Under the pieces are notes generated by a model. It ran no database searches, had not been told where the DNA came from, and was given only the letters and a program-made list of their open reading frames with translations. The position numbers and the translations under genes are program-made. DNA of 46,343 nucleotides from an uncultured Lentisphaerales bacterium (lineage in GTDB: Bacteria > Verrucomicrobiota > Lentisphaeria > JABSQK01 > UBA12247), in assembly GCA_943788985.1 (NCBI GenBank), contig CALSSJ010000019.1, positions 1 through 46,343 on the forward strand, written 5' to 3'. How positions within the stretch are numbered: position 1 is the stretch's first letter; each line of letters starts with the position of its first letter. Shown here in pieces: positions 10,087 to 41,641 of the stretch.

Positions 10087-13000
10087 GTGAGGGCAAGAGC
10101 TGTAGCAAAGTTCGGGGCGGCCAGGGGCGTCAAGCGTTGGGTTCAGTTGGCAATCTGGGCCGCTGTGGTCTGCGTTTGGAATGTCACTGCGCAGCAGATT
10201 GAGTTCCGCAGCCCTACTTCTGCAACCAGTAGCGAGGCCACAAGCAATCATGACGTGGTGATTGAGTTAACCTCGGGCGGCGCGTTGGGAAGCGATCTGT
10301 TTTTCGATGTGACGGATTTACTTTCTGGGGCTGCCGAGAGCGCCACGGATTACACCGCGCTTGCTGCGCCCACCACGCTCACTTTTTCCGCTGGCTCAGT
10401 TAACGGCGATACCGTGGTCGTCTCCATTCCGGTCATTCAGGACACAGATGTGGAGGGCGCCGAGGCCGTCGACTTGCGCTTATCCAATCCCAGCTTTGGC
10501 GCGCTCGGTACGCAGACCAACCACACGGCCACGATCACGGATGACGAGACCTTGGGCAGAGTTGGGTTTCAATCGGCGACGAGTTCGACGATTGATGAGT
10601 TCACGGCAACCACTGACGTTGTCCTTGTTCTGAGCCTGGCCTCCGGTTCGCTCGCGGAGGATGCGATCGTGAACGTGACGGACCAACTAACTGGCGCTGC
10701 CGCGTCAGGCACTGACTACGGGGCGCTAGCCACGCCGGTCACACTCACATTCTCGGCGGGATCCATCAACGGCGCCACAATTGTGGTCCCGATTGGTGTG
10801 ATTGACGATGCTACGACTGAGGGAAATGAGTCCATTGATCTCGCGATCTCGGCTGTCTCCGGTTCGGCGTCTGCAGGTGCTCAAACGAGCCATGAGTTCA
10901 GGATCACCGACGACGACAATCCGTTTGTTGCGTTCGAAACGTCCAACTCCTCGCGCACCGAGGATACTGTTGTCCATCCCGTAATGATTCGTCTCACCTT
11001 GCCGTTCGGCGGCACCATCCCGACCGACCTCTTTGTAGACGTCACAGACATTGCTGGCGATACAGCTACGAGTGGCACCGATTATGCTAATTTTGGTTCA
11101 CCGTTGACCGTATCCTTTCCTGCCGGCTCGCCGGACACCACGACGGCTGTCGTATCGATTCCCGTTCTGGAAGATCTGCTAGGGGAGGGGGACGAGACCA
11201 TCGACCTTCGCCTATCGAACGCAGTGGGGGGCGGTGGTGTTGTCCTCGGGGCTCCGACCAATCATAGGTTCACCATCCTCGATGATGAGGACGTCAGTGT
11301 GGAGTTTGCGGACTCTGCAACTGGCGTGGTCGAGAGTACGACCAGCCATGATGTCGTTTTGGTGCTGTCCGTTGACGGGGGCGGTACGATCGCGGACGAG
11401 GTGACTGTGGAGGTCACCGACCTACTTACCGGCACAGCTACTTCGGCCACGGACTACACGTCATTGGCTGTGCCGATCATTCTTACCTTTCCCGCTGGCT
11501 CTGCTGGCGGCGATACTGTGGTGGTCACAGTGCCAATCCTGGACGATATCCAGCTCGAAACCAGTGAAACCGTCAACCTGCAACTGGGCAATCCGAGCAA
11601 CGCAAGTCTGGGCGTAGTCACCAGCCATATTGTGACCATTTCGGATGACGACGTTGCGCCAAGCATCAATTTTGACTCGTCCAGTAGCGCGACTGCGAAT
11701 GAGAGCACGGGAAACCATGCTGTCGTGCTTGTCCTTTCCATGCCCAGCGGAACCCTGGGGGCGGATGCGACTGCGGACATCACAGACTTGCTCACAGGCA
11801 CTGCGGATAGTGGGACGGATTACACGACTCTTGCTTCGCCGATCACCGTAACCTTCAGCGCTGGCAGTGCCGATGGAGCGACTGTTGTGGTGAATATCCC
11901 GGTTCAGAATGATTTGGTTGTTGAAGGTGGTGAGACCGTAGATTTGAACCTCTCCAACCCTACTGGTGGCGCAGTGATCGGTGCCGTGGATACCCACGAA
12001 GCCACGATCACAGATGACGATGTGGTGACCGTCAACTTTGCGTCCGGATCCAGTAGCGTGAACGAAGCGAATACAACGCAGGATGTGGTTGTGGCGCTGT
12101 CTATCCCGGGCGGCGGTACTCTCGATGCCCCGTGGACTGTTGACGTCTTGGACCTCGGTGGCGGCACGGCGGCTAACGGTTTGGATTACACCGCGATCAG
12201 CAGTCCTGTCACCGTTACTTTCCCAGCTGCTGCGGCTGATGGTGCCACCGTTGTGGTATCGGTCACCATTTTGGATGACCCGACCATTGAAGCCACGGAG
12301 ACCATCGATCTAGTTCTGGCCAACTCCAGCTCGCCATTAGCGCTTGGCACGACGACAACCCATAGCATTTCCATCCTCGATGACGATGCCGCCTCCATCA
12401 GTTTCCAGTCTGGCAGCAGTTCGGTTAACGAAGGCAATACGACCCAAGATGTCATTGTTGTTCTGAGCATTTCGGGGCCGACACCGGTCGACATCACCTT
12501 TGAGGTCACGGATTTACTGAGCGGCAGTGCAGCTAATGGGACCGACTACACAACCTTGGCTAGCCCGGTGACTCTGACGTTTCTGGCGGGTTCTGCCAAT
12601 GGTGACACCCAGATTGTGCCGGTCGGTATACTTCAGGATGCAACCACGGAAAGCGACGAAACGATCGTTCTTGAATTGGGCAACCCGAGTGGCGCCGCAA
12701 CTCTTGGTACCTCGACCGAGCACATCGTGACGATCGTAGACGACGATCAGGCCTTGGTCGAATTTCAGTCGGCGACGAGCAGCATCGGCGAAAGCGCTGG
12801 GACTCTGTTTGTGGTTGTCGAACTGAGCGGAGGCACGGCGCTGCCAGCGGATGTCACTGTGGATGTCGCCGACCAGTTTTCGGGGACAGCGGCCAGCGAT
12901 ACGGACTACACTGCGATTGGTACGCCACAGGCAGTCACCTTTCCAAGCGGCAGTAATCCAGGGGATACCCAGGTTGTTTCGATACCGATCACACCTGATA

Positions 13001-16000
13001 CGCTTGTCGAGGGAAGCGAGACGCTAAATTTGGCGCTCAGTAATGTGGCCGGGCCTGGTGTGATTGGGAGTCAGACGATCCACGTTTCCACTATCACGGA
13101 TGACGACTTCGCTTCGTTGACCTTCCAGGCCAGCACCAGCTCTGTCGGCGAAGCAAACACTACACACAACGTCGTGGTTACCTTGCAATTGCCCAGTGGG
13201 ACCTTGCCCGCTGATACCACTGTCGACATCGCAGATCTTGGGAGTGGAACTGCTACAACAGCCACCGATTATACCTTCAGTACGCCGATTACAGTGACCT
13301 TTGCGTCGGGGGCAGCCGATGGGACAACTGTGGTCATTGCGATCGGTATCCTTGGTGATGTCGCGACGGAGGATAACGAGACGATCGCTCTGCAATTGCA
13401 GAATCCATCAGTACTTGGGGCACTCGGGGCGACGTCCAATCATGTCGTCTCGATCACGGATGATGATGCCCCGACAGTCACTTTTCAGTCTGGTGCCAGC
13501 TCGGTCGACGAAGCAAACACAACACACAACATTGTCGTCGTGCTCAACACGCCCAGTGCCCTGCCAGCAGACGTCACCATTGACGTCTCTGATGCACTCT
13601 CCGGCTCTGCCACCAGCGCGACTGACTACGCTGCGTTTGCGGGGCTAACCGTAACCTTTTCCTCGGGAGCTACTGACGGTGAGACACAAGCGGTCCCGAT
13701 TTCGATCTTGGACGATGCGGCTGGCGAAGGGCTGGAGGTGATTGACTTTCAGCTCAGCAATCCGACCGGACTCCTGACTTTGGGAGCCACCACTGAGCAT
13801 GTGGTGACGATTGTTGATGACGAGGTGGCGATCATTGAGTTCCAGTCTGCCACCAGTTCCAATACGGAAGACGGGTTGATCCTGACCGTGGTCGTTGAGA
13901 TTTCGAGCGGCTCTGCTGCCACGGATGCGACTGTTGACGTGACCGATCTCCTGACGGGGTCTGCCACCAGCGCTACGGACTACACGGCGCTGCCAGTTCC
14001 GGTGACAGTGACCTTTCCGGCTGGGGCTGCGCCTGGAACCACGAGGCATGTTGTCATTACGCTGCTGGACGATGTGCTGTTCGAGCCGAACGAGACAATC
14101 GACCTCTTGATGTCCAATCCCACGGGGCCCGCATCACTCGGGGCAACAACACCCCATCAGGCAACGATCATTGATGACGACACCGCAAACTTCACCTTCA
14201 CAACGTCGGCCAGCAGCGTGACCGAGGCTGCTACTACGCAATTCATTGTCGTCGAGCTGGAACTCCCGGGCGGCGGCCCGCTGCCGTCTGATTTCACTGT
14301 GGATGTCGCCGACATAGGCGGTGGCTCAGCAACTTCGGGGACGGACTATGGGGCGACGGGCTTGCTCACCCTTACCTTCGCTGCAGGTACGGCGACAGGG
14401 GCCACCCAAGTCATCCCATTGGGCATCATTGACGATGCGTTACTTGAATCGAGCGAGACTGTAAACCTGCGCCTCAGCAACCCGAGTTCGCCAGGGCAGA
14501 TTGGCGCGACCAGCAATCACGTCATTACCATCGTCGATGATGATTTCAACGGGACCGTTGAGTTCCAGAGCGCCACCAGCGCTTCAGCTGGCGAATCCGG
14601 AACCATTGCTGTTGTGGTCGAGCTCATGACCACAGGTGGCGTCGCACCCGCAGACATCGTCGTGAGCATCACCGATCTACTGACTGGCAGTGCCACCAGT
14701 GCGACCGATTACAGCGCACTGGCCAGCCCGATTACGCTTACCTTTGCGGCCGGCGCAAATAATGGCGATACCCTCACGTTCCCGATCAACATTCTCCCTG
14801 ATGCACTTACGGAAGGCCATGAGTCCGTAGACCTGCGCATCACCGGCGTGAGTGGGCCAGCGTCTGTGGGGTCCACAAGCAACCATCAGGTCACCATCAG
14901 CGACGACGACGGGTCGTTTGTCGCCTTCCAGTCCTCTGCCAGCAGCGTCGGCGAAGCCGATACCACGCACAACGTGGTGGTGGAACTGACCATTCCTTCA
15001 GGCACACCGCTGACCGGTCCGCTGACCGTAGACGTGACCGATCTGTTGACTGGCAGCGCGACCAGCGCGATCGACTTCAGCGCAATCGCCGCACCAGTTT
15101 CGGTCGTCTTTCCCGCTGCTTCCGGCAGCGGGGCGACCCAAGTCGTGCCGATCTCTATTCTGCAGGACTCGGTCCTCGAAGGCAGCGAAACCATTAATCT
15201 ACAACTCTCCAATGTGGTCACGGCCGATGGCGTTGTCCTAGGGGCGCCCACCGATCACACCGTCACCATCCTAGACGATGAAAACGACGGCACAGTTGAC
15301 TTCCAGTTGATCGCCAGCTCGATCAACGAAAACAACGTCTTGCATTTCATCGGCATGATTCTGAGTTTGGATGGTGGCGTTACTCTTGGCAATGAGGTCA
15401 CTGTCGAGGTAAGCGACCTGCTGAGCGGAACGGCCACGGCAGGGACCGATTTTACCGCGGTTGGCACCCAGACACTCAGTTTCCCGGTCGGGTCCACCAG
15501 TGGCACCGGGCTGTTTCTCCAGATTCCAATTTTGGATGACACCATCGGTGAACCGGATGAAACGATCGACCTGGCCTTGACTGCGGTCAGCGGACCTGCC
15601 GCGCTTGGCCCACAGACCGCACACGAAGTCACCATTCTGGACAACGACGGCATCGCGACCTTCCAGCTCAGCAGCAGCAACATCACCGAGACCAACACCG
15701 TCCACACTGTCATTGTCGAGCTGGTGGCGAGTGCGGCGCTGGTCGCCGATGGCTATATCGAAGTCACAGATCTTGGCACAGGCAGCGCCACAAGTGGCTC
15801 GGATTATGCGGCGCTGGTGAGCCCTGTGATTTTGACCTTTGCCGCCGGCTCCACGTCCGGAGCCACGCAGGTCGTCTCGATCACCATTCAGAACGATACC
15901 TACACCGAGGGCGACGAGACCATCAACCTGCGCCTTGCCAGTTCGGGGACACTCGGCGTCGGCAACACCAGCAATCACACGGTCACCATCAACGACGATG

Positions 16001-19000
16001 AAAGCGACCCGATCGTTCAGTTCCAGAACAGCGCCTCAAACCTAACCGAGGCCACGACCACCCAGAATGTCATCCTCGAGTTGACCTTGCCCAGTGGTGG
16101 TACGCTGGGGAATAACCTGACGCTCGATGTCAGTGACTTACTCACCGGTAACGCTACCAGCGGCACCGACTATGCGGCGCTGGCCATCCCTGAGACGGTG
16201 ACCTTCCCGGCAGGCACGGCCACAGCAGCCACGGCCGTGATCGGCGTCCCGGTGATTAATGATTTTATCATCGAAGGCGACGAAACCGTCGACCTGCGTA
16301 TGAGTAATCCGACGTTCGGCGCTCTGGGCAGTACCACCAATCACATCATCACCATCAATGATGGTGAGTTCGCCAGCATCGGCTACCGCACCGCCACATC
16401 GAGCGTCGGCGAGGCAACGACCACACACAGTGTCATCATCGACCTGACGATTACCGGTGCTGGTGCCTTGGCCACCGATTTGGTCATCAGCTACAGCGAT
16501 CTTCTCACCGGCACCGCGGCCAGCACCAGCGATTACACCGCGATCTCCACCACACAAGTCACCTTTGTGGCGGGAACCGGGACCAGCCAAACTGTGGTCG
16601 TCTCGATCCCGGTCCTAGACGACCCCCTGGTGGAGGGCGATGAGACCATTAACTTGGATCTGCAAGTGGTATCGGGCTCCGCCACCGCGACGACCACCCA
16701 GCACGCCGTTACCCTTTTCGACGACGAAGCTGGTGGCACCATCAACCTCCAATCGCCGGCCAGCTCTACCACCGAGGCGAACCCAATTCACTTTGTGGGC
16801 GTCGTCCTGAGCTTGGCGGGTGGCACCACACTTGGGCAGCCTGTCGTGGTCGAAGTCACCGATCAGCTGACTGGAACTGCCACAAGCGCGACCGACTACA
16901 CAGCCCTGGCAACCCCAATCATCCTAATCTTCCCAGTTGGCTCAAGCAGCGGGACCGCGCTTTTCTTTGACATCGCTCCAGTCGATGATCTGATCGGCGA
17001 GGGCGACGAGACCATTGATCTCGCCTTTACGTCCATCACCGGGCCCGCCACTGCGGGTTTGCAGACCTCGCATACGGCGACCATTCTCGATGACGACACC
17101 GGCGTCTCCTTGGTGCTCGGCACCAGCAGTGTTGCGGAGTCCACAACTACGCATTCCGTGATTGTCACCCTGACCATCGGCACCGGGACACTGGCGGCAG
17201 ATGCCACCGTACAGATCACCGATCTGGGAACCGGATCAGCGACAGCTGGAACCGACTATACTGCCATTGGAACCGTAACCGTGACGTTCGCGGCAGGCAG
17301 TGCCGATGGAGCCACGCAGGTGGTCAGCATTCCGATTCTGGATGACCTCGGCATGGAAGGCAGCGAGACTATCAATCTCCAGCTTCAGAATGCTACAGGC
17401 CCGCCGAACCTTGGGGCCACGACCTCGCACGTGGTGACGATCACAGACGATGACTTCCCGTCTGTTGCCTTCCAAAGCGCCGCCACAACCAAGAGTGAGA
17501 GCGGCTCCCCCCATTCCATCGTCGTGGTCGTGACCACGCCAGAAGGCCTAACCACGAGCCCGTTGACCGTGCAAGTGAGTGATCTGCTGACGGGAACCGC
17601 GACCAGCAATACGGACTACAGCACCTTTGCCACTGCGACCCTGACCTTTCCGACGGGAAGCGCCTCGGGGGACACGCAAGTCACCACCTTGACCGTGACC
17701 GACGACACAGATGACGAATCCGCCGAGACAGTTGACTTTCTCCTCGCCAGCGTCAGCGGTGGGCCCAATGGCATACTCGGGGCCACGACCACCCACACGG
17801 TCACGATCCTCGATAACGACGGCCTCGCCGTCGTCAAATCTGTCTCAACGACCAATCAGGCCCACACCACTGGGAGCGCGGTGACCATCGGCGAGATCGT
17901 TACTTACTCCTACGTCGTCACGATCCCGGAGACTGCGTCCACCTTCAACTTGCGCAGTATCGACACGCTGCCAGCCAATTTTACGTATGAGGCAGGTACC
18001 GTCTCGGTCACGACTGGCAACGCTGGCATGTCTATTGCCAGCACTGTCACCACCTGGACGCAGCCAACCCTACAGATTGACCTGACCACCGTTGCCAACC
18101 CAGCCAACGGCGACGGCTCCGACGACTTCCTGACCGTCACCTACCAGGCTCTAGTTGCGAACACCGCCACCAACGAAGCCGGCCAGAGCAAGACCAACAC
18201 TGTACAGGTGACAGACTTCAGCAATACGGTCAGCGATTCCACCACGGTGACCATCGTCGAGCCAGATGTCAGCGTCACCAAAACCGTGGCCGACATCACG
18301 CGCTGCGATGGAGTCGCCAGCATCGTCACCCTTGGCGACGTCCTCGAATACAGCCTGGTCGTGACCGAGACCACTGGTATCGACGCCTTCGACCTCAGCA
18401 TCACCGATCTCGTCGATGAAGGCCTTGCCTACGATACCTCGTTTACCCCGACGGTCACCGGCACCGGAAATACCATAAGCGCAGCCACCACCAGTGGAAC
18501 CGGCGGAGTGGGCGATCCGCAAACCATTACCTGGAGCCTGGCGCTGGCCAACGCCGACATCGACGTCGAGCCAAGCAGCAGCATCACCATCACCTACCGG
18601 GTGACCGTGCTCGCCACTGCCACCCCGAGTGCCACGCTCAACAACACCGCCACCATCGGCTTCTCGTCGATCGACGGCACCGATGCGAATGAGCGGTCCA
18701 ACGCCAGCGCCCCCGGCACCAATGATTACCAGGACCAGGCGAGCATCCCGGTCAGCGTCAAGCCAACTGGAACCACCCACAGCATCCCCGCATCCCGCCG
18801 CCGTAATCCGACCTTCATCGATGCCGCTGGCAACATTACGGGGCCTGGCGGGCCGGGTGTATTGACCGCAAATGACACCTTATCGTTGACCGATGGCTCG
18901 GGCGTGACCATTACCGGGGATGGTATTTCCGGCCCGCCCCCAGCAGGTGCGCCAGATGTGACCGTGGTCGCTGGTGCCACTGCGACCATCAATACCGACG

Positions 19001-22000
19001 GCACGGCCAGTTTCAACTATGGCGTCGTGACCATCAATGCCGGAGCGACGCTGACGATCACCGGGGATACAGCGATCAGCTTCGAGCAGATCCAGATGTT
19101 GAGCGGCTCCACATTGATTCTCCCCGACAGCACGACTCTGACCGTCACCGGCCCCTGCGAACTGAACGGTGGCGTCGGCACCGCCAACTACGTCACCATC
19201 CGGGCCGCTGGCACGGGCCCGCTCAGCATCAACTTCCAATGTTCGTTCACCGGCGACCACTTTCGGATCGAGGATATCGGCACTGGCACCATTACCTTTG
19301 ATGGCGACACCCAGATCGACTACGCCATCTTTGTCGATGGCTGCCTTGGCGGTGCTTACATCCAGTACAACGACAGCGATGACGTCACTTGGACCAATCT
19401 GGCATTTCATTGCGATTGTACGCCCACCAAGAGCACGATCGCAACGGGTGCCGCTGGCGGTAACGTCACCGTAGACGGCTACGCCCAAACCATCGCCACG
19501 CTTTGGTGCGGCGGGGATGCCAGCGACAGTGAGACCGGCGGTGTCGTCAGCTGGCTCAACGCCACACCGATTCGTGACCTCGCAGGCTCGCTCGAAGCCG
19601 CTGCCGACGGCGGTGTGACTGTGATCTGGCATACGGTCCAAGAAACCATGGTCGCTCACTTCCGCGTCGAGCGTCAGCGTGCCGCTGCGAACTCCGCAAC
19701 CTTCACCGAAGTCGGTCGCGTCTTCGCCACCGCCGAGGAGTTTGGCAATGCGGACTACGCATTCCTGGATCGCAGCGCCGAGCCTGGCGTCGCCTATCGC
19801 TATCGCATCAACGTCATCGATACCGACGGCACCCATCGCTGGTACGACCTTGGCGAGGCCAGCGCTTCCCGCAAAGCCGCACCCGCACCACGCCGTGCCG
19901 AGCCGCGGGCAGACAACACCCCGATCGCCAGCTCCGTAACCGTCACGACTCCAGACTACGAAGTCGCGGGTTACGCGGCTGATACGCCTGCGCAGAGCGG
20001 AACTGCCAGTAAGGCTGCGGTCTCCGCAACAGGGCTCTACTCCGTCCCGGGCGGCGACCCCGTCTACAACTTTGGCACCCAGCTGCCACGCCTCGGTGAC
20101 AGCCAATCCTTCGTCTTCGTGCGTGAGGTCAGCGACTACTACACCGATTCCAACGTGATCTGGACCGGCCGACTCCAGACCGCTGGCGCAGCCTCCAGCG
20201 GGCCGGAGTTGGGCATTGACGGGACCCTCTCCATGGAGGGTTATATCGGGCGCCATCACGTCGAATCCAACCAGTCCTTCTCGGTGAACTCCAGCCTGCC
20301 TGCCGGACCGAACTGGTACTATCAGACCCGCATCAACACCGAATCCACGCTATCCGTCGACGTCGCGCTGCCTGCACCGACCGCTGGCACTGCCACGATT
20401 CGCGTTGCGATTCGCACCAATTCCGACATCGCCCACACCCTGACGATACGCTGCAACGACATCGTCCTCGGCACCGCGGACTGGTTCGGCAATGGGCATC
20501 GCCAGCTTGAAATGACATTCGCCGCCAGCACACTGCGCAGCGGCGACAACACCGTGACACTCAGCACCACCAACGCCACCAGCGAACATCGCCTCGATTG
20601 GATCGAGATCGATACGCCAACCGCGCTGTCAGTCGGAACCAGTGGCGTTACGGTGCAGGCCACGGAAGCCGTGGACTTCACACTGCCCGTCGGCAGTCTC
20701 GCCGTGGACGTCACCGCGTTTGGCAACGAGAGCATCTTGCCTGCCACCAATGGCGTCGTCACCATCCCAGCTGGCCACATCGTCCATGTTGCGAACACCG
20801 CAAAGAGCCTGACCTGGTCCAGCCCGACCACTCTCGTAACTCCAAGCCTGGCCTCCGTTCAGTACCTTGCCGTTGCCCCCGAGGCCTGGCTCGGCCGCCT
20901 CCAGCCGATTGTGAGCAAGCACGGCATGCGCACGTTGCTTATCTCGCTCGAAGACGTCAACGACATCTACGGCGCTGGCCTGTTCGGTCCCGGCGGGCTG
21001 GTCGGCCTGACCCAACGTGCCCAGGCTGACTACCTGCTGCTGGGTGCGGGCACGACCTACGACTATAAAAACTTCGAAGGCCGCGGCACGGATCTTGGGA
21101 TTCCAACGGGTTGGCTCCAAGTGCGTGAAGGCATGGCGGCAACCGATGACATCTACAGCGCAAACCTGACCACCGCCGTCGGCCGCCTCCCAGCTCGATC
21201 CAGCAATGAGCTGCTGAACATGGTGAACAAGATCGTTAATTTCAAGCCCACGCAGCGTGTGGTGCTGCTAGCCGATCGCGACGACAGTGAAGGTGGCGTC
21301 AACCGCTTCTCCGAAGCCCAGGCCTCCCTCCAAAATCTGGTGCCGACCGTCCTGATCGAGTCGGAGACACAGGACAGCGCAGCGGTTCGCAGCGACCTGA
21401 TCGCCGCGATTCAGTCTGGTGCCCGGACCGTAGCCTTTCAAGGCCATGCTGGCTTTCAGGAGATTGGAGATCGGTTCGTCGATGTCAACAACGCCTCTTC
21501 ATTCCCTACCAGCGCCTGGCTCTTGTCCACCTGTTTGACCGGTAGCTACTTCATCAACAGCAGCACCCCGACCCTGGCCCGTACGCTGATGAATACCCCG
21601 AACGCGGGTGGCGCGATGGTCATTGCCAGCACGCGTTTTGGCCACGCAGATTACGAGCATCAGATGATCACCAAGGCTCTCGAGATCATGGCCGCCGACG
21701 GTGGCACCTGGGGCCAGATCCTGCGGACTTTGAAGCGGGACCTGGATCACGAAACCCTAGCTGTGTTCCAGCTGTTTGGCGATCCTGCGATGGCCAGCTC
21801 TGCCGACGACGATCCGCGGTCGATCATTTTGCGGAGTCCGCAAGGCGGCAGCCTTGTCGGGGGCAACGGTCTCGTGACCATTGGCTTTGGCTTGCAGGGC
21901 GAAGGCTGGTGGGATGAGACCCTGCGGGTAAGCTATCGTCGAGATGGTGGCCCGTGGCTAACGATCCGCCAGCTCAACGCCGTACCTGGCCAGAGCGAGT

Positions 22001-22068
22001 ACAGCAATGACTGGCTCCCGCCAACCGATGGTGAAGGCTACCAGATCAAGATCGAGGTCGCCGAATAG
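10087..22068 (+). CDS. Giant secreted adhesin-like protein (3993 aa): 21 Calx-beta-like repeats, 2 isopeptide/DUF11-type domains, PVEL-like domain, C25-family peptidase domain
   Basis: Uninterrupted ORF with SD ggag and signal peptide. About 121-aa repeats (F...TDLLxGxATxxTDY...TF...D...EGDET..L......TITDDD) at about 10195-17823. C25 motifs at about 20857-21792: YLLLG..TYDYKN, GRLPA, FQGHA, STCL.G.Y, GGA, LFGDPA. Confidence 0.9.
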   Translation: MRARAVAKFGAARGVKRWVQLAIWAAVVCVWNVTAQQIEFRSPTSATSSEATSNHDVVIELTSGGALGSDLFFDVTDLLSGAAESATDYTALAAPTTLTFSAGSVNGDTVVVSIPVIQDTDVEGAEAVDLRLSNPSFGALGTQTNHTATITDDETLGRVGFQSATSSTIDEFTATTDVVLVLSLASGSLAEDAIVNVTDQLTGAAASGTDYGALATPVTLTFSAGSINGATIVVPIGVIDDATTEGNESIDLAISAVSGSASAGAQTSHEFRITDDDNPFVAFETSNSSRTEDTVVHPVMIRLTLPFGGTIPTDLFVDVTDIAGDTATSGTDYANFGSPLTVSFPAGSPDTTTAVVSIPVLEDLLGEGDETIDLRLSNAVGGGGVVLGAPTNHRFTILDDEDVSVEFADSATGVVESTTSHDVVLVLSVDGGGTIADEVTVEVTDLLTGTATSATDYTSLAVPIILTFPAGSAGGDTVVVTVPILDDIQLETSETVNLQLGNPSNASLGVVTSHIVTISDDDVAPSINFDSSSSATANESTGNHAVVLVLSMPSGTLGADATADITDLLTGTADSGTDYTTLASPITVTFSAGSADGATVVVNIPVQNDLVVEGGETVDLNLSNPTGGAVIGAVDTHEATITDDDVVTVNFASGSSSVNEANTTQDVVVALSIPGGGTLDAPWTVDVLDLGGGTAANGLDYTAISSPVTVTFPAAAADGATVVVSVTILDDPTIEATETIDLVLANSSSPLALGTTTTHSISILDDDAASISFQSGSSSVNEGNTTQDVIVVLSISGPTPVDITFEVTDLLSGSAANGTDYTTLASPVTLTFLAGSANGDTQIVPVGILQDATTESDETIVLELGNPSGAATLGTSTEHIVTIVDDDQALVEFQSATSSIGESAGTLFVVVELSGGTALPADVTVDVADQFSGTAASDTDYTAIGTPQAVTFPSGSNPGDTQVVSIPITPDTLVEGSETLNLALSNVAGPGVIGSQTIHVSTITDDDFASLTFQASTSSVGEANTTHNVVVTLQLPSGTLPADTTVDIADLGSGTATTATDYTFSTPITVTFASGAADGTTVVIAIGILGDVATEDNETIALQLQNPSVLGALGATSNHVVSITDDDAPTVTFQSGASSVDEANTTHNIVVVLNTPSALPADVTIDVSDALSGSATSATDYAAFAGLTVTFSSGATDGETQAVPISILDDAAGEGLEVIDFQLSNPTGLLTLGATTEHVVTIVDDEVAIIEFQSATSSNTEDGLILTVVVEISSGSAATDATVDVTDLLTGSATSATDYTALPVPVTVTFPAGAAPGTTRHVVITLLDDVLFEPNETIDLLMSNPTGPASLGATTPHQATIIDDDTANFTFTTSASSVTEAATTQFIVVELELPGGGPLPSDFTVDVADIGGGSATSGTDYGATGLLTLTFAAGTATGATQVIPLGIIDDALLESSETVNLRLSNPSSPGQIGATSNHVITIVDDDFNGTVEFQSATSASAGESGTIAVVVELMTTGGVAPADIVVSITDLLTGSATSATDYSALASPITLTFAAGANNGDTLTFPINILPDALTEGHESVDLRITGVSGPASVGSTSNHQVTISDDDGSFVAFQSSASSVGEADTTHNVVVELTIPSGTPLTGPLTVDVTDLLTGSATSAIDFSAIAAPVSVVFPAASGSGATQVVPISILQDSVLEGSETINLQLSNVVTADGVVLGAPTDHTVTILDDENDGTVDFQLIASSINENNVLHFIGMILSLDGGVTLGNEVTVEVSDLLSGTATAGTDFTAVGTQTLSFPVGSTSGTGLFLQIPILDDTIGEPDETIDLALTAVSGPAALGPQTAHEVTILDNDGIATFQLSSSNITETNTVHTVIVELVASAALVADGYIEVTDLGTGSATSGSDYAALVSPVILTFAAGSTSGATQVVSITIQNDTYTEGDETINLRLASSGTLGVGNTSNHTVTINDDESDPIVQFQNSASNLTEATTTQNVILELTLPSGGTLGNNLTLDVSDLLTGNATSGTDYAALAIPETVTFPAGTATAATAVIGVPVINDFIIEGDETVDLRMSNPTFGALGSTTNHIITINDGEFASIGYRTATSSVGEATTTHSVIIDLTITGAGALATDLVISYSDLLTGTAASTSDYTAISTTQVTFVAGTGTSQTVVVSIPVLDDPLVEGDETINLDLQVVSGSATATTTQHAVTLFDDEAGGTINLQSPASSTTEANPIHFVGVVLSLAGGTTLGQPVVVEVTDQLTGTATSATDYTALATPIILIFPVGSSSGTALFFDIAPVDDLIGEGDETIDLAFTSITGPATAGLQTSHTATILDDDTGVSLVLGTSSVAESTTTHSVIVTLTIGTGTLAADATVQITDLGTGSATAGTDYTAIGTVTVTFAAGSADGATQVVSIPILDDLGMEGSETINLQLQNATGPPNLGATTSHVVTITDDDFPSVAFQSAATTKSESGSPHSIVVVVTTPEGLTTSPLTVQVSDLLTGTATSNTDYSTFATATLTFPTGSASGDTQVTTLTVTDDTDDESAETVDFLLASVSGGPNGILGATTTHTVTILDNDGLAVVKSVSTTNQAHTTGSAVTIGEIVTYSYVVTIPETASTFNLRSIDTLPANFTYEAGTVSVTTGNAGMSIASTVTTWTQPTLQIDLTTVANPANGDGSDDFLTVTYQALVANTATNEAGQSKTNTVQVTDFSNTVSDSTTVTIVEPDVSVTKTVADITRCDGVASIVTLGDVLEYSLVVTETTGIDAFDLSITDLVDEGLAYDTSFTPTVTGTGNTISAATTSGTGGVGDPQTITWSLALANADIDVEPSSSITITYRVTVLATATPSATLNNTATIGFSSIDGTDANERSNASAPGTNDYQDQASIPVSVKPTGTTHSIPASRRRNPTFIDAAGNITGPGGPGVLTANDTLSLTDGSGVTITGDGISGPPPAGAPDVTVVAGATATINTDGTASFNYGVVTINAGATLTITGDTAISFEQIQMLSGSTLILPDSTTLTVTGPCELNGGVGTANYVTIRAAGTGPLSINFQCSFTGDHFRIEDIGTGTITFDGDTQIDYAIFVDGCLGGAYIQYNDSDDVTWTNLAFHCDCTPTKSTIATGAAGGNVTVDGYAQTIATLWCGGDASDSETGGVVSWLNATPIRDLAGSLEAAADGGVTVIWHTVQETMVAHFRVERQRAAANSATFTEVGRVFATAEEFGNADYAFLDRSAEPGVAYRYRINVIDTDGTHRWYDLGEASASRKAAPAPRRAEPRADNTPIASSVTVTTPDYEVAGYAADTPAQSGTASKAAVSATGLYSVPGGDPVYNFGTQLPRLGDSQSFVFVREVSDYYTDSNVIWTGRLQTAGAASSGPELGIDGTLSMEGYIGRHHVESNQSFSVNSSLPAGPNWYYQTRINTESTLSVDVALPAPTAGTATIRVAIRTNSDIAHTLTIRCNDIVLGTADWFGNGHRQLEMTFAASTLRSGDNTVTLSTTNATSEHRLDWIEIDTPTALSVGTSGVTVQATEAVDFTLPVGSLAVDVTAFGNESILPATNGVVTIPAGHIVHVANTAKSLTWSSPTTLVTPSLASVQYLAVAPEAWLGRLQPIVSKHGMRTLLISLEDVNDIYGAGLFGPGGLVGLTQRAQADYLLLGAGTTYDYKNFEGRGTDLGIPTGWLQVREGMAATDDIYSANLTTAVGRLPARSSNELLNMVNKIVNFKPTQRVVLLADRDDSEGGVNRFSEAQASLQNLVPTVLIESETQDSAAVRSDLIAAIQSGARTVAFQGHAGFQEIGDRFVDVNNASSFPTSAWLLSTCLTGSYFINSSTPTLARTLMNTPNAGGAMVIASTRFGHADYEHQMITKALEIMAADGGTWGQILRTLKRDLDHETLAVFQLFGDPAMASSADDDPRSIILRSPQGGSLVGGNGLVTIGFGLQGEGWWDETLRVSYRRDGGPWLTIRQLNAVPGQSEYSNDWLPPTDGEGYQIKIEVAE

Positions 22069-22080
22069 GCGAGGGGCTTT

Positions 22081-22176
22081 ACTGGGAGCGCCGGATGTAT
22101 CCGGCAACGGAGCCCCCTCGTTCCTCGTTTCTCAGTTCACACGCCACGAATGCCGGATGCATCCGGCCCTCCCAGT
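22081..22176. repeat. REP-doublet (REPIN-like) inverted repeat, copy 1
   Basis: Arms actgggagcgccggatgtatccggca (22081-22106) and tgccggatgcatccggccctcccagt (22151-22176) are 24/26 complementary. Each arm is itself palindromic. Confidence 0.8.
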
Positions 22177-22195
22177 GACGTCACGTCGGTCGGCT

Positions 22196-22290
22196 CAGAC
22201 CCTCCAGGCCATCCCCGGCCAGGCCGACTTCCAGATCGACTGGACACCCCCACCAAAGGCGTTGGCTACCAGATCCGCATTCGCTCCAAC
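22196..22290 (+). pseudogene. Orphan remnant of a third paralogous adhesin C-terminus
   Basis: QTLQAIPGQADFQIDWTPP/TKGVGYQIRI aligns with RQLNAVPGQSEYSNDWLPPTDGEGYQIKI at the end of both giant proteins. One frameshift in a C run. Confidence 0.7.
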
Positions 22291-22416: not shown

Positions 22417-25400
22417 ATGCTTTCCCCGCTCCGCATCGTCGGTTTGTTACTATTTTTCTGGGGGATCGGTGTCTGTGCTCAATCGGTATCGTTTCAGACG
22501 GCCACGAGCACCAGTGAAGACGAGGGGCTGGCCCACGATGTGGTCGTGCAACTGACGACGGGGGCCCCGCTGGGGGCGCCGCTGACAGTGGATGTGCGAG
22601 ACCTGCTGACAGGAACGGCGACGGCCTCGACGGACTATACCGCCATTGGCACCCAGACGGCGACGTTTATTGCTGGTAGCACCAATGGCTCAACCCAGAC
22701 GATTGTATTGACGCCCACACAGGATTTTGACCAGGAGGGGGACGAGACCGTAGACTTCGTGCTGGAGAACGTCAGCGGCGGTATTCTCGGCAGTAGCACC
22801 ACGCATATCGCCACCATTAACGAGGACGACTGTGTCTGTGACGGGGGCGATCTGAACTTCACCCGTTTCGAGCCCATCACCATCGATGGTGATGTGTCAG
22901 ACTGGGAGAATGTGCTCGACGACCGAGATAATAATGTCTGTGACGGCACCCAGAACGCCCCTTTGCTCCCGCCACAGCCCGATCGTGATTCAGGCGCACA
23001 GGCGGGCCGTGACATGGTCCATTTTGCGTTCACATGGGATGCCACAAGCCTCTACTTCTATACCCGCCGCGCCGCATCTTCGAACCCCAATACGCACTTC
23101 ATCTACTATGTCGACGAAGACAACGACGGGCAGATGGAGAGTGGCGAAACGGTGGTCCAAGCCATATGGAGTGGAGCCAGTTCGACCATCTCTGTTAATA
23201 TCTACGATTATGTCGAAGACGGGGGGGACCCCGACGACATGGCCGATGGATCGGGCTTTGCCGACGGCTATACGCTTCCCGGCACGGAAGCATCAGGCAT
23301 AGCGGGGCCCAACGGTCAGGCAACCGCGAATGGCGACGAGATGGAGTTTTCTTTTACATGGGCATCGATTGGAGTTGCACCGCAACGTGCGTTCAATTAT
23401 CATGTTACAGTGAACAATAACTTCAGCACCCCCTTCGCCAGCGCGCTGGACAACGCGGGCGGTTGCAGTGGCGGATTGGGTTCGACCCAATTCGCGGCCC
23501 CGCTGATCGAGCCGGATGAGGGCAGAGAATATGACCCGGGCGATACCTTGGTTTTTGCCAAACAACTCGCCAACGATGGCAACGACACAGACACCATCAA
23601 TCTTACCTGGTCGGCTGTCGGCGGGCATACGCCCACTTCGGTGACCTTCTATGACGATGCCGATAGCAGCGGCACGCTGACCGGAGGGGATACCGTACTT
23701 ACCGACACGGACGGTGACACCAATCCGGACAGCGGACCACTCGCCCTTTTTACCTCCATGGATATTCTGGTCGAATATGTCGTCGACGGGGCAGCCACGG
23801 GCACTTCGGTCATCACCCTTACTTCGTCCTCCAACTTCAGCCCGGCTGCAACGGAAACCGCCGAAGATACGCTCTTCCCGAAGCCCAGCGTGCGCTTTGA
23901 CTCCAGCACCAGTGCTACGGCGGAAACTGGCTCGCATGCGATCACGCTCAGCTTGGACTTTCCCAGCGGTGGCACGTTGACAGCGGATGTTGTGGTGGAT
24001 ATCACCGATAACGGCACTGGTGCCGCGAACAGCGGCACGGACTACACCAGTATCGGCGTGCCGGCTACAGTCACCTTCGTGGCCGGCTCGGGGCCGGGAG
24101 CTACCCAGCAGGTGAGTATCACGATCACGCCAGATACGAATGTGGAAGGGGACGAGACGGTCGACCTGCAGATTACAGCGACAAGCGGCCCCGCAAATCT
24201 GGGATCAACGACCAATCACACCTTCACTATCACCGATGATGACACGGCGACGATTCAATTCCAAGCGGCAAGCAGCGCAACTGCGGATGAGGCCTCTTCT
24301 ACCCATAACGTCGTACTGGTGGTGAACACGCCACCCGGCGGGGCGATTCATGTGCCGATTACCGTTGACATTACGGATGCGGCCAGCGGCTCGGCTCTCA
24401 GTGGTACTGATTATGCGGCGATCGGCACGCAGACGGTGACATTTTCGGCGTTTTCAGCTGATGGTTCCACACAATTGGGCGGCGTGCTGGTGATCCAGGA
24501 TACGCAGGTCGAGGGGGATGAGACGCTTACCTTGGCACTGTCCAATCCGGGGAGTCTGGCCGTGGTAGGCGCAACGACGCAGCATACCGCGACGATCACC
24601 GATGACGACGAGGCGCAGGCGAGATTTCAGACTGGGACCAGTTCGGTGGCAGAGCCCAACAGCCGCAGTATTATCGTGCAGCTGGACACCAGCGGGGCAA
24701 CGTTGGCTCTGGACCTGACGGTTGAGGTCGCGGATCTGCTCAGCGGCTCTGCAACCAGCAACACGGACTATACGACCTTCACAACCGCCACGGTCACGTT
24801 TTCATCCGGGGCCGCGGACGGCGCAACGCAGGTGGCGACGCTCAGTACGCTGGATGACAGCCTGGTGGAGGTAGATGAGACCTTGGACTTTCGGCTGCAG
24901 AACCCGAGCGCACTGTTGCTGCTGGGTACGAGCACAAACCATACCGCGACGATTACCGATGATGAGTCGGCTTCGGTGGCCTTTCAGGCGGCCAGCAGTT
25001 CTTTGACGGAAGCCACGACGACACACTCGGTCGTCGTCACCCTGACCGCGACGGGAACATTGCAGGATGCCTTGACCGTGGATGTCCGTGACCTTGGTAC
25101 TGGGGCGGCGCTTACAGGTACGGACTTTACCTACTTTGGTTCGCCGGTGACGGTGACCTTTGCGGTGGGCTCGGCGAATGGTGCCACGCAGCTGGTCCCG
25201 ATTCAGATTCTGGAAGATACCTTGATTGAGGACACAGAGACGATTGACCTGCGCTTGGAGAATGCCAGCAGCCCGGTGAGCCTTGGCGCGACAACAAATC
25301 ATCCGCTCAGCATCCTGGATGATGAAGCTGCGACGGTGACGTTTACGTTGGATAACAGTTCGCTTGGCGAGGCCGCAGGTCCGCACACGATCGTGATCCA

Positions 25401-28400
25401 ACTCGGGGGCACACCAGGAGCGACGCTGGGCAGTGACGCGACTGTGGATGTGGCGGATCTGCTCACGGGAAGCGCGACCTCAGGCACGGACTATACGCTA
25501 ACTTCGCCCACGGTGTTGACCTTCGCGGCCGGTTCCAGCGACGGAGATACCCAGATCCTGACGATTCCGGTCACCTCCGATACCTTGGTGGAGGGCGACG
25601 AGACGGTAAATCTGCAATTGCAGAATGCCAGTGGTTCCGGTTTGGCGCTAGGAGCCACGACCGACCGCGCCCTAACCATCATCGATGATGAGTTCGCCTC
25701 ACTTGCCTTTCAAACAGGGACCAGTTCTGTCGCCGAGGCAAACACGACCTTGGATGTTGTCCTAGTCTTAACCGTCACCGCCGGAGCCACTCTGGCAGAC
25801 GCGGAGACGGTGAATCTCTCAGATCTGGGCAGTGGGACCGCCAGCAGCGGCGCCGACTATACGGCGTTGGCGGCACCAGAAGTGGTCAGCTTTCCCGCGG
25901 GCAGTGCGACCGGGACCACGCAGGTGCTGCCGCTCTCCGTGCTGAATGATCTGTTGGCGGAAGGCGACGAAACGATCGATATGCAGATTGCAGCCCCGTC
26001 GGCACCGCTGACGCTGGGGGCGCAAACCACGCACACGACGACGATCACAGACCCGGAGACCCCTTCGGTCGCCTTCGCCGTCGCCAGCAGCGCCACCGGG
26101 GCGGAGTCGGGCACGCACTCGGTCATTGTCACCCTATCGATTGCCAATAGCGGCATTCTCCAGGACGATGCCACGGTGGAAGTCAGTGACCTGCTGAGCG
26201 GGACGGCCAGCAGCGGCACAGACTACACGGCTTTGGCCACCCCGATCGTGTTGACGTTTACGGCCCTAAGCGGGGATGGCGCTACCCAGGTGGTCTCGAT
26301 TCCAGTGACCACGGATGTCCTGTTGGAAGGCGATGAAACCGTAGATCTGCGCTTAGTAAATCCGGCTGGGTCGGGCCTGACTGATAGGTGTTCAGACGAA
26401 TCATGAAGCCACCATCACAGACGACGAGACCGCAAGTATTGCTTTTCAGAGTGCGGCGGTTTCGGCCGCAGAGACAGTAGGCACGCACAATGTGCTGCTA
26501 CAGCTTACGGTCTCTGGAGGCGGGAGTCTGGCCAGCAACCAGACCATTGAGGTGGCCGATCTGGGCACGGGGACGGCGCTGGCTAGCGGCACGGACTACA
26601 CGTTCGTTACGCCGTTGACGGTGACCTTCTCTGCGGGGGCTAACAGCGGCGATACAGAGCAGGTCCCGATCGCCGTCACCAACGATACGCTGGTTGAGCT
26701 TGCCGAGACGCTAAACCTGCGGCTGCAGAATCCAGCTGGACCCGTGACCTTGGGCGCTCAGAGCAATCACACTACGACCATTACCGACAATGAGACTGCC
26801 ACCGTGGCGTTTGCCGCGGCCTCCAGCGCATCCGCCGGAGAAACCGGCACGCTCGCAGTGGTGGTCACGCTGACGACGACTGGAGGCGGGACCTTACAGG
26901 ACCCAGTGACCGTCGATGTCAGCGATGTCCTCTCTGGCACCGCGCTTTTGGGCACAGAATACACCTTCACCACGCCGGTCACCCTGATCTACCCTGCCGC
27001 CAGTGGTAACGGCACAACCCAAGTCGCCGTGCTTACCATCCTGACGGACACCTTAGTCGAGGGCGATGAAACTGTAGATTTCACCGCAAGCAGCGCTACT
27101 GGCGCGGCCTCGCTGGGGGCGCAGACCACCCACGAAGCGACAATTACCGATGATGAGTTTGCGGATGTCGTATTCCAGGTGGCCAACAGTTCTGTGATAG
27201 AGGCCGTGACCACCCATACCGTGGTGGTGCTGCTCAATGTCACGGCCGGAGCTTCGCTGGCGACCGACGTCACAGTCACCATGGATGACCAAGGCGGTTC
27301 GACGGCGTCCAGCGGGACCGACTACAGCAGCTTCGGCCCGCTGGTGCTCACCTTTACCGCCGGGACCATCACCGGTGCGACGCAGGAGCTTTCGCTGAGT
27401 ATCCTCGACGACCTGCTAGCGGAAGGAACAGAATTTATTGACTTGGAACTGAGTGGCGCCTCATCGCCCTTAACCTTGGGAGCAACCAGCCTTCACCCGG
27501 TCTCGATTCTCGACCCTGAGACGCCGGAGGTTGATTTTGCGGTCGCAACAAGCGCCTCTGCAGTAGAAAGTGGCAACCACAACATCGTGCTCGTCCTGAC
27601 GGTGTTCGGTGGCGGTACGCTGGGAACGGCTGCCACAGTTGAGGTGGCCGATGTTGGCTCAGGTTCTGCGACCAGCGCTACGGATTACACCGCGCTGGCA
27701 CCGATCGTCGTCACGCTCCCTGCGGGCAGCGGCGATGGTAGCACGCACTATGCCGGGCTCCCAATCATCTCCGACAACCTGCTCGAAGGCGACGAGACCG
27801 TCGACATGGTGCTGCAGAATCCAGCGGGGGCTGGCTTGATTCTCGGTGTCGGACTGACCACGCACACCGCCACCATCACCGATGACGAAACCGCCAACTT
27901 TACCTTTCAAGCCGCCACAAGCTCAAGTGCCGAGGCCAGTACGACCGTCGAAGTCATTGTCACGCTCAATGTCTCGAGCGGCGGGATACTGCTCACCTCA
28001 GCCACCGTCGAGATCAGCGATGCGGCCAGTGGCTCGGCAACCAGCGCCACTGATTACGCAGCATTTGCCACCACCACGGTCACGTTTGCCCCCAGTTCGT
28101 CCGACGGTGATACACAGGTCGTCTCCGTGGTTCTGCTGGACGATACCTTGGTTGAAGGGAACGAAACCATTGACTTCGTGCTGCAGAATCCCAGCAGCCC
28201 CGTCGCCCTAGGTGCGCAAAGCAGCCATGAGCTGACCATTACCGATGGCGAAACTGGAGCCTTCAATTTCCAGCTTGCCGCCAGCAACGTTGCCGAAGCA
28301 GCAGCCAGCGGCAGTATCGTGGTCGTTCTTAGCACGACCGGCGGTGCCACCCTCGCTAGCGCCGCCTCCGTCAACATCTCAGATCTGCTCAGTGGCAGCG

Positions 28401-31400
28401 CAACTGTGGGCACAGACTACTCATTTTCCTCGCCCGCTACGGTGATTTTTCCCGCTGGCTCAGGCAGCGGCGTCACCCGTGTCACCGCTGTAAACATATT
28501 GGATGACCTGATCACCGAGGCCGATGAAACCGTGCAACTGCTGCTCTCCACCCCCAGCGCCCCCATCACGGTCGGTGCCACTAACCTGCATGCGCTCACC
28601 ATTCTCGACGATGAAATCGCCCGCGCGACCTTCCAGGTTGCCACCAGTTCGCTGGGCGAGGCGAACACCACACACGTCGTGACCATCGCTTTGACCGTCG
28701 ACAACGGCGGCTCTGTGCCTGGCGGCTTCAGTGTCACGCTCACCGATCTTGGCACTGGCTCTGCCTCCGTCGGCAGCGACTACAGCGCGATCGGCTCACC
28801 GATCAGCTTCGTCTTCCCAGCCGGTGCCAGCGACGGCGATTCGCAGCTGCAGACCATCACCATTCTCGACGATGCGACCGCTGAGGCGAACGAGACCATC
28901 AACCTGCGCCTGAGCAGCCCAACCAGCCCCGTGGAGCTAGGCACCAGTAGCCACGCCGTCACAATCATCGACGACGACTTCTTGGGCATATTCAGCTTTC
29001 AGAGCGCGGCCAGCACCACCGCCAGCGAGGCAAGCACCTTTCACTACGTCGTCGTCGAGATGACGACTACCGGGGGCAGTCCAGCGCCCGTTGCTTTGAC
29101 GGTCGAAATTGTCGATGCCTTAACCGGCTTGGCCACGACCGGGAGCGACTACGCGACCTTGGCCAATCCCACGCAATTAGTCTTCCCTGCCGGGAGCGTC
29201 AGTGGTGCCACCCAACTCGTTGCCGTCAGCATCATCGATGATCCGACGACCGAAGGCTTTGAAACTATTGATCTGGAGATCGGCGCGATTGCCGGGCCGG
29301 GCACCACTGGCGCGGCCACCGCTCACACCATCACCATTTTTGACGATGACGGGCCATTCATTAACTTCTACGCCAGCAGGAGCACGGTCGCGGAGACCGC
29401 AGCCAGCCAACAGATCGTCGTGCAGCTATTCATCCCCGCAGGCGGGCCTTCCACCTGTGACGCAACTGTCCAGATCAATGATCTCGGAACCGGAAGTGCT
29501 GGTGCTGCAGACTACGCAATGCCAAATACCACTACCATTTTCTTTCCCACCGGAAGCGCCTCCGGTTCCCTGCAAACCATCGCGATCAATCTCACAGATG
29601 ACGCCTTTGCCGAGGGCGATGAGACGATCGACCTCCAACTGCTCAACCTGACCCCAGGCTGTATCCCGATTGGCGCGCCTACTACCCATCAAGTGACCAT
29701 CACCGACGATGAAAACCCTGGCAAAATCAATATGCGGTTTTTGGACAGCCAGGTTGACGAGGATAACGTGATTCACTTTGTGGCCTTGATCATGACGCTG
29801 GATCCCGGTGTGCGCCTGGGCAATGAGATCGGGATCGAAGTCACCGATCTACTCAGCGGCAGCGCGACCAGCGCCATCGACTACAGCGCCATGGCCACGC
29901 CCACCACGGTCACTTTCCCGATCGGGCGCACCAACGGGGGCCGCGATGTTTATCCCCATTAACATCATCGAGGACTTTGTCGGCGAGAGCGACGAAACGA
30001 TTAACCTGACTGTGAGCGGTATTTCCGGCCCCGGGTTGTTCGGGTCGCAAACCAACCACGTCGTCACCATCCTCGATGATGACGGCAGCGTCTTTTTTAA
30101 ATCCGCCACCAGCACTGTCTTAGAAGCTGGCGGCGTGTTCCACACCGTTGTCGTAGAGCTTGAAACCCCGACAAATCTGTCCGTCGCTGGCGCCGCGCAG
30201 ATCACCGACCTGCTTACCGGAAGTGCCACAAGCGGTACGGATTATATGGAATTGCCCAGTCCCGTCAGCGTGGTCTTTCCGGTTGGCTCAGCCGACGGCA
30301 GTACCCAGGTAGTGCCTATCTTGATCCAAGATGACGCCAGCACCGAAGGGCCCGAAACGCTGCAGTTGCGCATGACCGGTTCCACCAACCTACGCCTCGA
30401 CGGTCAGACCAATCACGTCGTGACGATTACCGACGATGAAGCAGCCCCCTTCGGTCGCCTTCACCGTCAGTGCCAGCTCAGAAACGGAGGCCAATGCCAG
30501 CGTCAGCATCACCGCCAAGCTCACCGTACCATCCGGAACCCTCGGCAACCCACTCAGTGTCAGCCTCACCGACCAACTCACTGGCACCGCCACCAGCGGC
30601 ACTGACTACGCAGCGTTGAGCACACCAGAGACACTTACCTTTCCGGCCGGTTCCGCAGACTGCGCCACAATTACCTTCACCTTGTCAATCTTCAATGACT
30701 TCCTTATTGAGGGCACAGAAACCCTCGAACTGCTCCTCAGCAACCCGTCATTTGGCACAATCGGTGCTACCCCCTTGCTCACCCTCTCGATCGTGGACAC
30801 CGAAACCGCTCTCATCGGCTTTCAGACCGCTACCAGCAGCGTCGGCGAAGCGAACACCACGCACAACCTCGTGGTTGCACTCACTATCACCGGCGGCGTC
30901 CTCGCCAGCGATCTCATTGTCCAGTACACTGACCTATTAACCGGTTCAGCAGCCTCCGGCACTGACTACAGCCCCATTACCTCACAGCAGTTTACCTTCG
31001 TCGCTGGCTCCGGTTTCAGCGAGACCCGTGACATCCCGGCCACCATCGCCGATGATCTCGTGCTCGAAGGCGACGAGACCATCAATCTCGATCTGCAGGT
31101 GGTCTCAGGCTTCGCCACGCCCGCAACCACCCAGCACGCCGTCACCATTAGCGACGACGAAGCCCCGGCCATGATCGACTTTCAGTTCCCCGGTTCATCC
31201 ACCGACGAGAGCACGTCCGTCCATTTCGCTGGTCTGGTGATGATCATCCCTGGGCCTTATCCGCTCGGCAATGACATAGAAGTGGAAGTCACCGACCAGT
31301 TTACCGGCTCCGCCACCAGTGGCACAGATTACACCGCCTTGACGATACCAGTCGCGCTTACCTTTCCCGCTGGCTCTAGCAGCGGATACGCCCTATTCCT

Positions 31401-36499: not shown

Positions 36500-36600
36500 G
36501 GGAGGGCTTCACTGGGAGCGTCGGAGGCATCTGGCAACAGAGCCTGCTCGTTCCTCGGTTCACGCGCCACGAATGCCAGATGCGTCCGGCGGTCCCAGTG
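31892..36600 (+). repeat. About 4.7-kb direct duplication of 17461-22176
   Basis: Constant offset of 14431 at four checked anchors (17461/31892, 18121/32552, 21445/35876, 22068/36499). Includes the downstream REP element. Confidence 0.92.
36510..36600. repeat. REP-doublet (REPIN-like) inverted repeat, copy 2, between convergent genes
   Basis: Arms cactgggagcgtcggaggcatctggca (36510-36536) and tgccagatgcgtccggcggtcccagtg (36574-36600). Homologous to 22081-22176. Confidence 0.8.
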
Positions 36601-36620
36601 AGATAACGTCAGACTTAAAA

Positions 36621-40280: not shown

Positions 40281-40686
40281 GTGCGAAGCTTTGCTGTGAG
40301 ATCGATGTAGGGCTGCGCTCCTGTCCTATGATGACGCCCTCGACCTGTGGCAGCTGGCCAGGGTTGTGAGACAGCTGCATAACGGAACGTTCCACGTCGC
40401 AAAATTGTACGTGGCGCGTAGCCGAACTCGCCGATGTCGGCTGTTGATCTAGCTGGCTTGAGGACGATGATCATGATCGATTCCGAAGGTCTGAGAGCTG
40501 GGAAAGGTAGATCAGGACCGTTGAATTGACAATGGGAGCAGGAAGCCTTCAACAATAACCAACAGCCAACAGGGAATTTTGAATCGCCAATGATGACCGT
40601 TGAGCATGCAATCCAGCTCCTGGGGATTGGCCTGACGGCGCTCTCGTACGCTCCGCTTTGGGCTAATGCGACCGACGCGCCGGCGA

Positions 40687-41441: not shown

Positions 41442-41641
41442 GGCATCCCTTCTCTACGGTATTATTGACACCTGTGCGCATCGTATCTAAGCGCGCAACT
41501 CTCGGCCCTTTCAAAACGTCGCGCGATCTGCAATCGACAGGTTCATTTACCAGTGATAAGGCGTCCTTGCCGATCTGTCAACGAGTTCCATATAGGCAAA
41601 TAGTCGAAAGGGGTTGATGAACTCGATTGCTATTGCTATCG

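Follow-up and report, generated by a model that had tools for sequence, protein, structure and literature searches.

Peptidase family C25 includes the gingipains, among which RgpA and Kgp are protease-adhesin polyproteins, and PorU, by which Bacteroidota attach proteins to their surface and which to our knowledge is known only as part of the type IX attachment complex. As described in the available sections of two reports, PorU cuts before a small Ig-like domain, between T/E/D/N and G/A/S, and the cargo is passed to an amine or released (PMC10202324, PMC4560394); part of a third gives its site specificity as low (PMC5445135). Type IX secretion system (T9SS) genes are absent outside the FCB group, according to a portion of PMC11285876. 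Caspase-like autoprocessing domains occur in toxins and large surface proteins, as stated in the accessible part of PMC3482391.

Here, we describe two giant proteins (A and B) of an uncultured Lentisphaerales bacterium that end in an FN3-fold domain and a C25 enzyme. PorU is the best fold and profile match, sharing the N-terminal beta region, the C25 domain with its His/Cys dyad and, in both giants, an equivalent of Arg722; it differs in that the module is fused behind putative cargo with FN3 in front, lacks the part of PorU after position 732, including the CTD, and occurs in a genome without a PorV, SprA, GldN or CTD match. Gingipains RgpB and Kgp (PDB 1cvr, 4rbm) share the C25 fold, the dyad and an Ig-like domain after the catalytic domain, whereas in the giants the protease is C-terminal to the adhesin stalk, and neither Propeptide_C25 (PF08126) nor a CTD was matched. 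The position of RgpB Asp163, which we take to be the acidic S1 residue, is Ser in A and B in a profile alignment that is gapped there. Autoprocessing domains of clan CD, found in RTX/MARTX and polymorphic toxins as well as in large surface proteins, are likewise built-in cysteine proteases of giant secreted proteins, with self-cutting proposed or shown (PMC3482391, in part). In contrast, the giants use another family, C25 with a PorU N-terminal region, in a constant C-terminal unit with variable N-terminal cargo and a putative dedicated FN3 tag; no toxin domains were found in them. The T9SS type A CTD (TIGR04183, PF18962) is, like our FN3 domain, a small seven-stranded beta-sandwich after cargo, paired with a PorU-type enzyme, but the FN3 domain matches no CTD model, has FN3 structural neighbours and sits inside the chain, before the enzyme.

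Full-text literature, mainly outside the subscription journals, held no description of an FN3 + C25 fusion or of this FN3 domain, and neither C25 nor gingipain is mentioned in the available main text of PMC9210967 and bioRxiv 10.1101/2023.11.21.568195; PMC12618676 likewise contributes nothing here. Described here are an uncatalogued putative FN3 tag and a PorU-derived enzyme behind exchangeable cargo, in bacteria where T9SS was not found.

Locus and layout of the two giant proteins

The window (the whole 46,343-nt stretch analysed, contig CALSSJ010000019.1) carries the two giant genes in tandem on its + strand, A then B (Table 1); sequencing runs containing this DNA are marine or estuarine. 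Giant A runs from a signal peptide through a Calx-beta stalk, two pilin/DUF11-type domains (PF16569 also matched there, below cut-off) and a beta-rich region without family match to the FN3 domain, the PorU-like module and an Ig-like tail. An HMM search recovered the Calx-beta repeats. Among fibrillar-adhesin features, repeated stalk domains are present in A (Pfam), and no known adhesive or anchor domain was recognised in the giants.

Table 1. Positions of features in and around the two giant genes (window coordinates)
Feature	Position	Strand	Details
Giant A	10087..22068	+	3993 aa, single ORF; 3993 aa also in other assemblies
Probable Sec signal peptide of A	10087..10191	+	By eye; NVTA end, then Q
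Calx-beta repeat stalk of A	10192..17820	+	20 Pfam stretches, E 6e-150
Two isopeptide-pilin/DUF11-type domains of A	17824..18771	+	TIGR04226, 60 bits (cut-off 30)
Beta-rich Cys-containing region of A, final stalk part	18784..19551	+	Sequence
NATP junction and seven-stranded FN3-fold domain of A ("PVEL-like")	19558..19860	+	Profile, AlphaFold, Foldseek
Disordered Arg/Lys/Pro-rich linker of A	19870..19971	+	About 34 aa; pLDDT under 50, model residues 142-175
Beta domains of A matching PorU N-terminal region	19993..20862	+	NF033707; Foldseek 6za2
C25 catalytic domain of A	20863..21792	+	His 21445, Cys 21532, Arg 21634 (compare PorU Arg722)
Tail of A, 88-aa beta-sandwich	21802..22065	+	Not T9SS CTD; absent from most family members
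Inverted repeat after A	22081..22176	.	26-nt arms
Giant B	22417..36499	+	4692 aa in other assemblies (P0073)
NATP junction and FN3-fold domain of B	33989..34291	+	Sequence, profile
C25 domain of B	35294..36223	+	His 35876, Cys 35963
Tail of B	36233..36496	+	80% identity to tail of A
Inverted repeat after B	36509..36601	.	28-nt arms; resembles repeat after A

Giant B is broken into five ORFs between 22366 and 36499 in this assembly by four single-base assembly insertions near 26384, 29936, 30445 and 31714; in an independent contig (L062), giant B is uninterrupted and lacks these bases. The last three insertions are absent from contigs of four runs from four studies, and the first is absent in X2 and X4 (X7 has no coverage there, X17 no listing). 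Relative to L062, our assembly also has additional bases at 9551 and 9614, within a gene for a BufA2 bufferin-like Cys-rich exported peptide (9150-9716; NCBIfam, below cut-off), and housekeeping genes at 1073-2501, 3048-3671 and 6815-7390 look split or truncated, consistent with assembly indel errors. Three Ser/Thr kinase genes cluster at 39123-43810, and two of these lie back to back, at 42760/42761.

Across their last 1593 aa, A and B are 85% identical. Near the N-terminus of giant B (residues about 130-355; 22800-23480) lies a non-Calx insert absent from A, a candidate ligand-binding tip that by eye is like the N-terminal domain of a smaller giant in genome G121. A partial degenerate copy of the tail sequence lies between the giants (22190-22275). 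Homologues of the A tail were found at G123:C204 and on contig C17 of this genome (G000), where the C25 end and the tail occur a third time (G000:C17:132465-132976) in decayed form, with stops and a frameshift.

The C-terminal module and its relatives

The initial annotation assigned both giants a C25-like domain, and Pfam Peptidase_C25 (PF01364) bears this out at 95 and 98 bits (cut-off 23), covering residues 3593-3902 of A; the His and Cys codons lie exactly where it had placed them. A module profile matched PorU 6za2 (E 1.6e-39) and RgpB 1cvr (E 2e-32) and aligned the His and Cys motifs with those of both. What had been missed is that the approximately 290 aa between FN3 and C25 correspond to the PorU N-terminal region: residues 3404-3903 of A match positions 155-731 of 1,095 in NF033707 (PorU). 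With 56 bits against a cut-off of 420, partial coverage, no CTD and no T9SS gene found in the genome, identification of the giants as PorU was rejected.

The last 873 aa of A were modelled with AlphaFold (73 rows; pLDDT 76, pTM 0.73), giving a seven-stranded sandwich, a disordered linker, beta domains, C25 and a small tail; residues 1-43, which include NATP, scored under 50. PorU 6za2 was the top Foldseek match (E 1.6e-21), followed by RgpB and Kgp; its rmsd of 17.5 over 908 columns indicates that the domains are positioned differently from PorU. Both giants have an equivalent of PorU Arg722 (ASTR at Cys+34; PorU, FSTTR at Cys+32), a residue found in only one of 148 family representatives, B itself, and absent from the nearest relative, L031.

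Comparison of A with B gave a dN/dS of 0.054 for C25, the lowest of seven regions (others, 0.076-0.23); the C25 domain is under the strongest purifying selection within the part common to both. The PorU model scores A at 56 bits versus 135-239 for seven other family members, and a quick tree (58 rows, one dropped) placed A and B together with the FN3-less L031 on a long branch. A and B are very divergent members of the module family.

The NATP/FN3 stretch, NATP(I/V)RDL...GVTV.W...HFRVER...YRYRI..IDTDG, is present in both giants as previously described, except that NATP starts at 19558 and 33989, 3 bases earlier than claimed. Its proposed "PVEL-like" character survives a noncircular check: a 175-member profile built without A and B still recovers both (E 1.4e-9 and 3.3e-9), and nothing else, when the genome is read in six frames (50,838 ORFs). 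The same profile matches P0001 (E 4e-16), in which a PLPVQL start and FN3 are followed by a weak T9SS-tail match. The local match begins after NATP, so the equation of NATP with the PT/LPV of the family comes from the multiple alignment only. Folded alone, the domain has seven strands (pLDDT 79), strand A beginning four residues past NATP; its best Foldseek match is an Ihog FNIII domain (E 1.1e-4), and most further matches are FN3 domains. Searches of the domain gave no NCBIfam model, no Pfam fn3 or other convincing Pfam match and no match to TIGR04183 or PF18962.

The architecture proposed for the giants is real in both of them and is not confined to them, since it recurs in a large, uncatalogued multiphylum family. 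A search with the last 845 aa matched 8 of 301 class genomes, to which an FN3 search added G113 and G167, and this count is a minimum. A nine-row profile found 46 long proteins, 40 of them (A and B included) with a module-type C25. FN3 directly precedes the PorU-like part in 36 of these 40 and is undetectable in four (P0038-P0041); the other six have FN3 without C25 (four) or are gingipain-like (two). Sources include Thermoanaerobaculia, Vicinamibacteria, Candidatus Electronema and Nitrospirota, and the neighbours in the Atlas are clusters of Acidobacteriota. When run against 1.84 billion representatives, the profile found 11,245 proteins at E under 1e-30, a figure that covers all C25 kinds. 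Among the best 150 of these, a set selected by a profile that holds FN3 and including B and some query rows, FN3 then C25 occurs in 148; the His and Cys motifs are kept in 145 of the 148, and 133 end no more than 20 aa after C25, with stalks up to about 5,400 aa. Counted the other way, free of that selection, the 301 class genomes gave 16 FN3 matches, and 15 of them have a PorU-like region behind them, in one case past a frameshift and in two at contig ends; the 16th is a weak match behind C25. The match of family members to PorU starts at about position 83-190 and extends to 732. One frame, at G113:C881 (L103), stays open for 10,096 aa and has the module at its end.

The upstream boundary of the module is sharp. 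The junction Thr lies 20 residues before an invariant Trp in 129 of 144 proteins and is preceded by Pro in 84 of 144, and conservation upstream of this Thr/Pro is under 0.7 bit. Out of 1,460 protein pairs that are alike downstream, 1,359 share no more than 20% upstream, and two paralogues in G167 show 98% identity in the 60 aa that start at the Thr and 7% ahead of it. Cargo in 23 scanned proteins included SdrD, DUF11, lamin-tail, kelch, papain, subtilase and a second C25. Such a boundary, together with such varied cargo, indicates that the module is exchanged as a block starting at the Thr.

Junction, export and neighbouring genes

Self-cutting near NATP, as the initial annotation suggested, was compared with the PorU rule. 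A cut between N and A fits it in both giants, and one between T and P does not. In A and B, the junction Thr is offset by one residue from the family and is followed by Pro; family members mostly have Leu, Ala, Arg or Tyr after it (Pro in 10 of 170, A and B included). Of 170 junction windows, 75 contain a PorU-type dipeptide (T/E/D/N, then G/A/S); upstream control windows gave 86, 98 and 116. NATP has a pLDDT under 50 in the small-domain model as well, and the conserved (P)T may be just the structural start of the FN3 domain. The R+K fraction of family linkers has a median of 0.11 versus 0.035 in stalks.

In line with the earlier failure to recognise a T9SS CTD, neither TIGR04183 nor PF18962 matched the giants. 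A survey of the genome (83.6% complete) gave no Por_Secre_tail, SprA_N, PorV, GldN or TIGR04183 match, the PorV search being the one backed by a control that gave a match; PorV was likewise without match in five other carrier genomes, as were GldN and TIGR04183 in four. Three secretins and two ShlB-type barrels are present. A "GWN" domain, shared by 33 ORFs of the genome (for example, C5:45312-52145, C5:61011-73346, C18:116240-135715 and C23:124049-140962) and nearly always C-terminal, includes most of the largest secreted proteins among its carriers and is a possible lineage-wide secretion signal; it is absent from A and B. One "GWN" ORF has a secretin match (C5:44725-45294) directly upstream.

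Outside the fusion, the FN3 domain occurs in a Chloroflexota genome (G304) with a single C25 protein that lacks FN3; two upstream genes end in FN3, and two more proteins carry it. In P0042, P0044 and P0046, the C-terminal FN3 is followed by another short PT-type motif, a membrane helix and basic residues; this is the three-part layout of sorting signals and has no NCBIfam model. Each of two Nitrospirota genomes (G301, G302) has one FN3 and one C25, in the same ORF, and in G303, with four FN3 and four C25, three are in cis and the other is interrupted by a contig end. Multiple or tandem copies of the module are common (G000, G121, G167, G113).

Polysaccharide export/ligase-like genes (Wzc/Wza/ligase-like or Wzm/Wzt) flank the enzyme at four of six relatives' loci (L067, L069, L074, L060) in a neighbour scan that covered 28 of 67 listed ORFs, five of the 28 from L074. 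A radical SAM gene is present at three of the four, with HprK-like and S26-like genes in L069 and L074. No Wz-type or radical SAM neighbours were seen at G121, G093 or in this window, where Pfam also found no glycan-assembly genes. As a separate observation, a radical SAM/PqqD-like/HprK-like/S26-like set adjoins the module at L067, L069 and L074 (Nitrospirota and Chloroflexota loci). P0006 shows an S24-type match at its N-terminus, and P0007 and P0012 start similarly.

Possible functions of the module

The best explanation, to which we give an even chance, is that the 835 residues at the end of each giant form a mobile unit of FN3, linker and PorU-like enzyme, predicted to process or anchor its own chain in cis. 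The chain would leave the cytoplasm by Sec export through its N-terminal signal and cross the outer membrane by a non-T9SS route, for which a secretin system is the most plausible candidate. FN3 would be the recognition tag, as the Ig-like CTD is for PorU, and the linker would let it reach the enzyme; with FN3 as tag, the cut would be set by position and not by strict sequence. The module would cut near the stalk/FN3 junction, and the stalk would then pass to a surface amine acceptor or be released. In that last step, the thioester would be resolved by a glycan or peptide amine (anchoring, a shade better than an even prospect) or by water (release, a shade worse).

Counting toward action in cis are the closeness of PorU in structure and profile, the sharp boundary, the swapping of cargo, the low dN/dS of C25, the FN3-C25 pairing and kept dyad of the family, FN3 ahead of a T9SS-like tail (P0001) or a membrane helix (P0042, P0044, P0046), the single FN3 and C25 in one ORF in Nitrospirota, the C25-less FN3 genes in Chloroflexota and the polysaccharide-gene neighbours. 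Counting against it are the lack of PorU-type dipeptide enrichment, the low pLDDT of NATP, the rarity of the Arg722 equivalent, the divergence of A and B, the FN3-less proteins (L031, P0038-P0041) and the window's lack of a glycan-assembly gene; one enzyme per cargo is also a costly design for a catalyst.

A more specific and more tentative version, which we consider rather doubtful, is a self-sortase: a portable unit of FN3 tag and PorU-type transpeptidase that, in several phyla without T9SS, would sever whatever secreted cargo stands before the tag and join it covalently to a glycan or amine on the surface. The same tag stands in trans in Chloroflexota and before T9SS tails, so if the self-sortase is real, type IX secretion would be younger and less widespread than the PorU/tag pair.

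A displayed, gingipain-like hydrolase whose targets would be outside proteins from food, prey or matrix, with FN3 as an ordinary spacer, is unlikely. It would suit the plain FN3 fold, the junction without PorU-type site enrichment and the membership of gingipains in C25, and other C25 proteins of this class do show a gingipain-type propeptide layout. The module, however, tracks the PorU N-terminal region and not the gingipain propeptide, and the RgpB Asp163 position is not Asp. The same FN3 also ends C25-less secreted proteins beside a stand-alone C25, and other proteases are found among the cargo; with cargo so varied, a sorting unit fits better than a protease on a stalk.

Action in trans, by which an intermolecular sortase or cross-linker would join A and B or act on other secreted proteins with FN3 as docking tag, seems quite improbable. 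PorU itself works in trans and is regulated between molecules (PMC10202324, in part), the arrangement in G304 is of this kind, and tandem or multiple modules are common. Against this, FN3 occurs in this genome on A and B only, so that a tagged substrate can only be A or B, and the single copies in G301 and G302 leave only the protein itself or identical neighbours as tagged partners. A noncatalytic module, binding the cell surface or aiding folding or export with a latent or vestigial dyad, would agree with the strong divergence and shortened loops of these copies and the decayed third one but is very unlikely given a dyad intact in A, B and 145 of 148 relatives and the lowest dN/dS in C25.

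We regard the module as PorU-derived and conserved, not as PorU by membership, with PorU-like action on its own chain being likely. If the cis-acting reading is true, a single-chain PorU-type unit with its own tag would add to the ways in which bacteria release or fasten their giant surface proteins. Cut selection by PorU-type enzymes could then be tested simply, on one polypeptide. The unit could possibly serve as a protein-ligation tool, and it would account for an FN3 domain that is very common among environmental bacteria yet uncatalogued.
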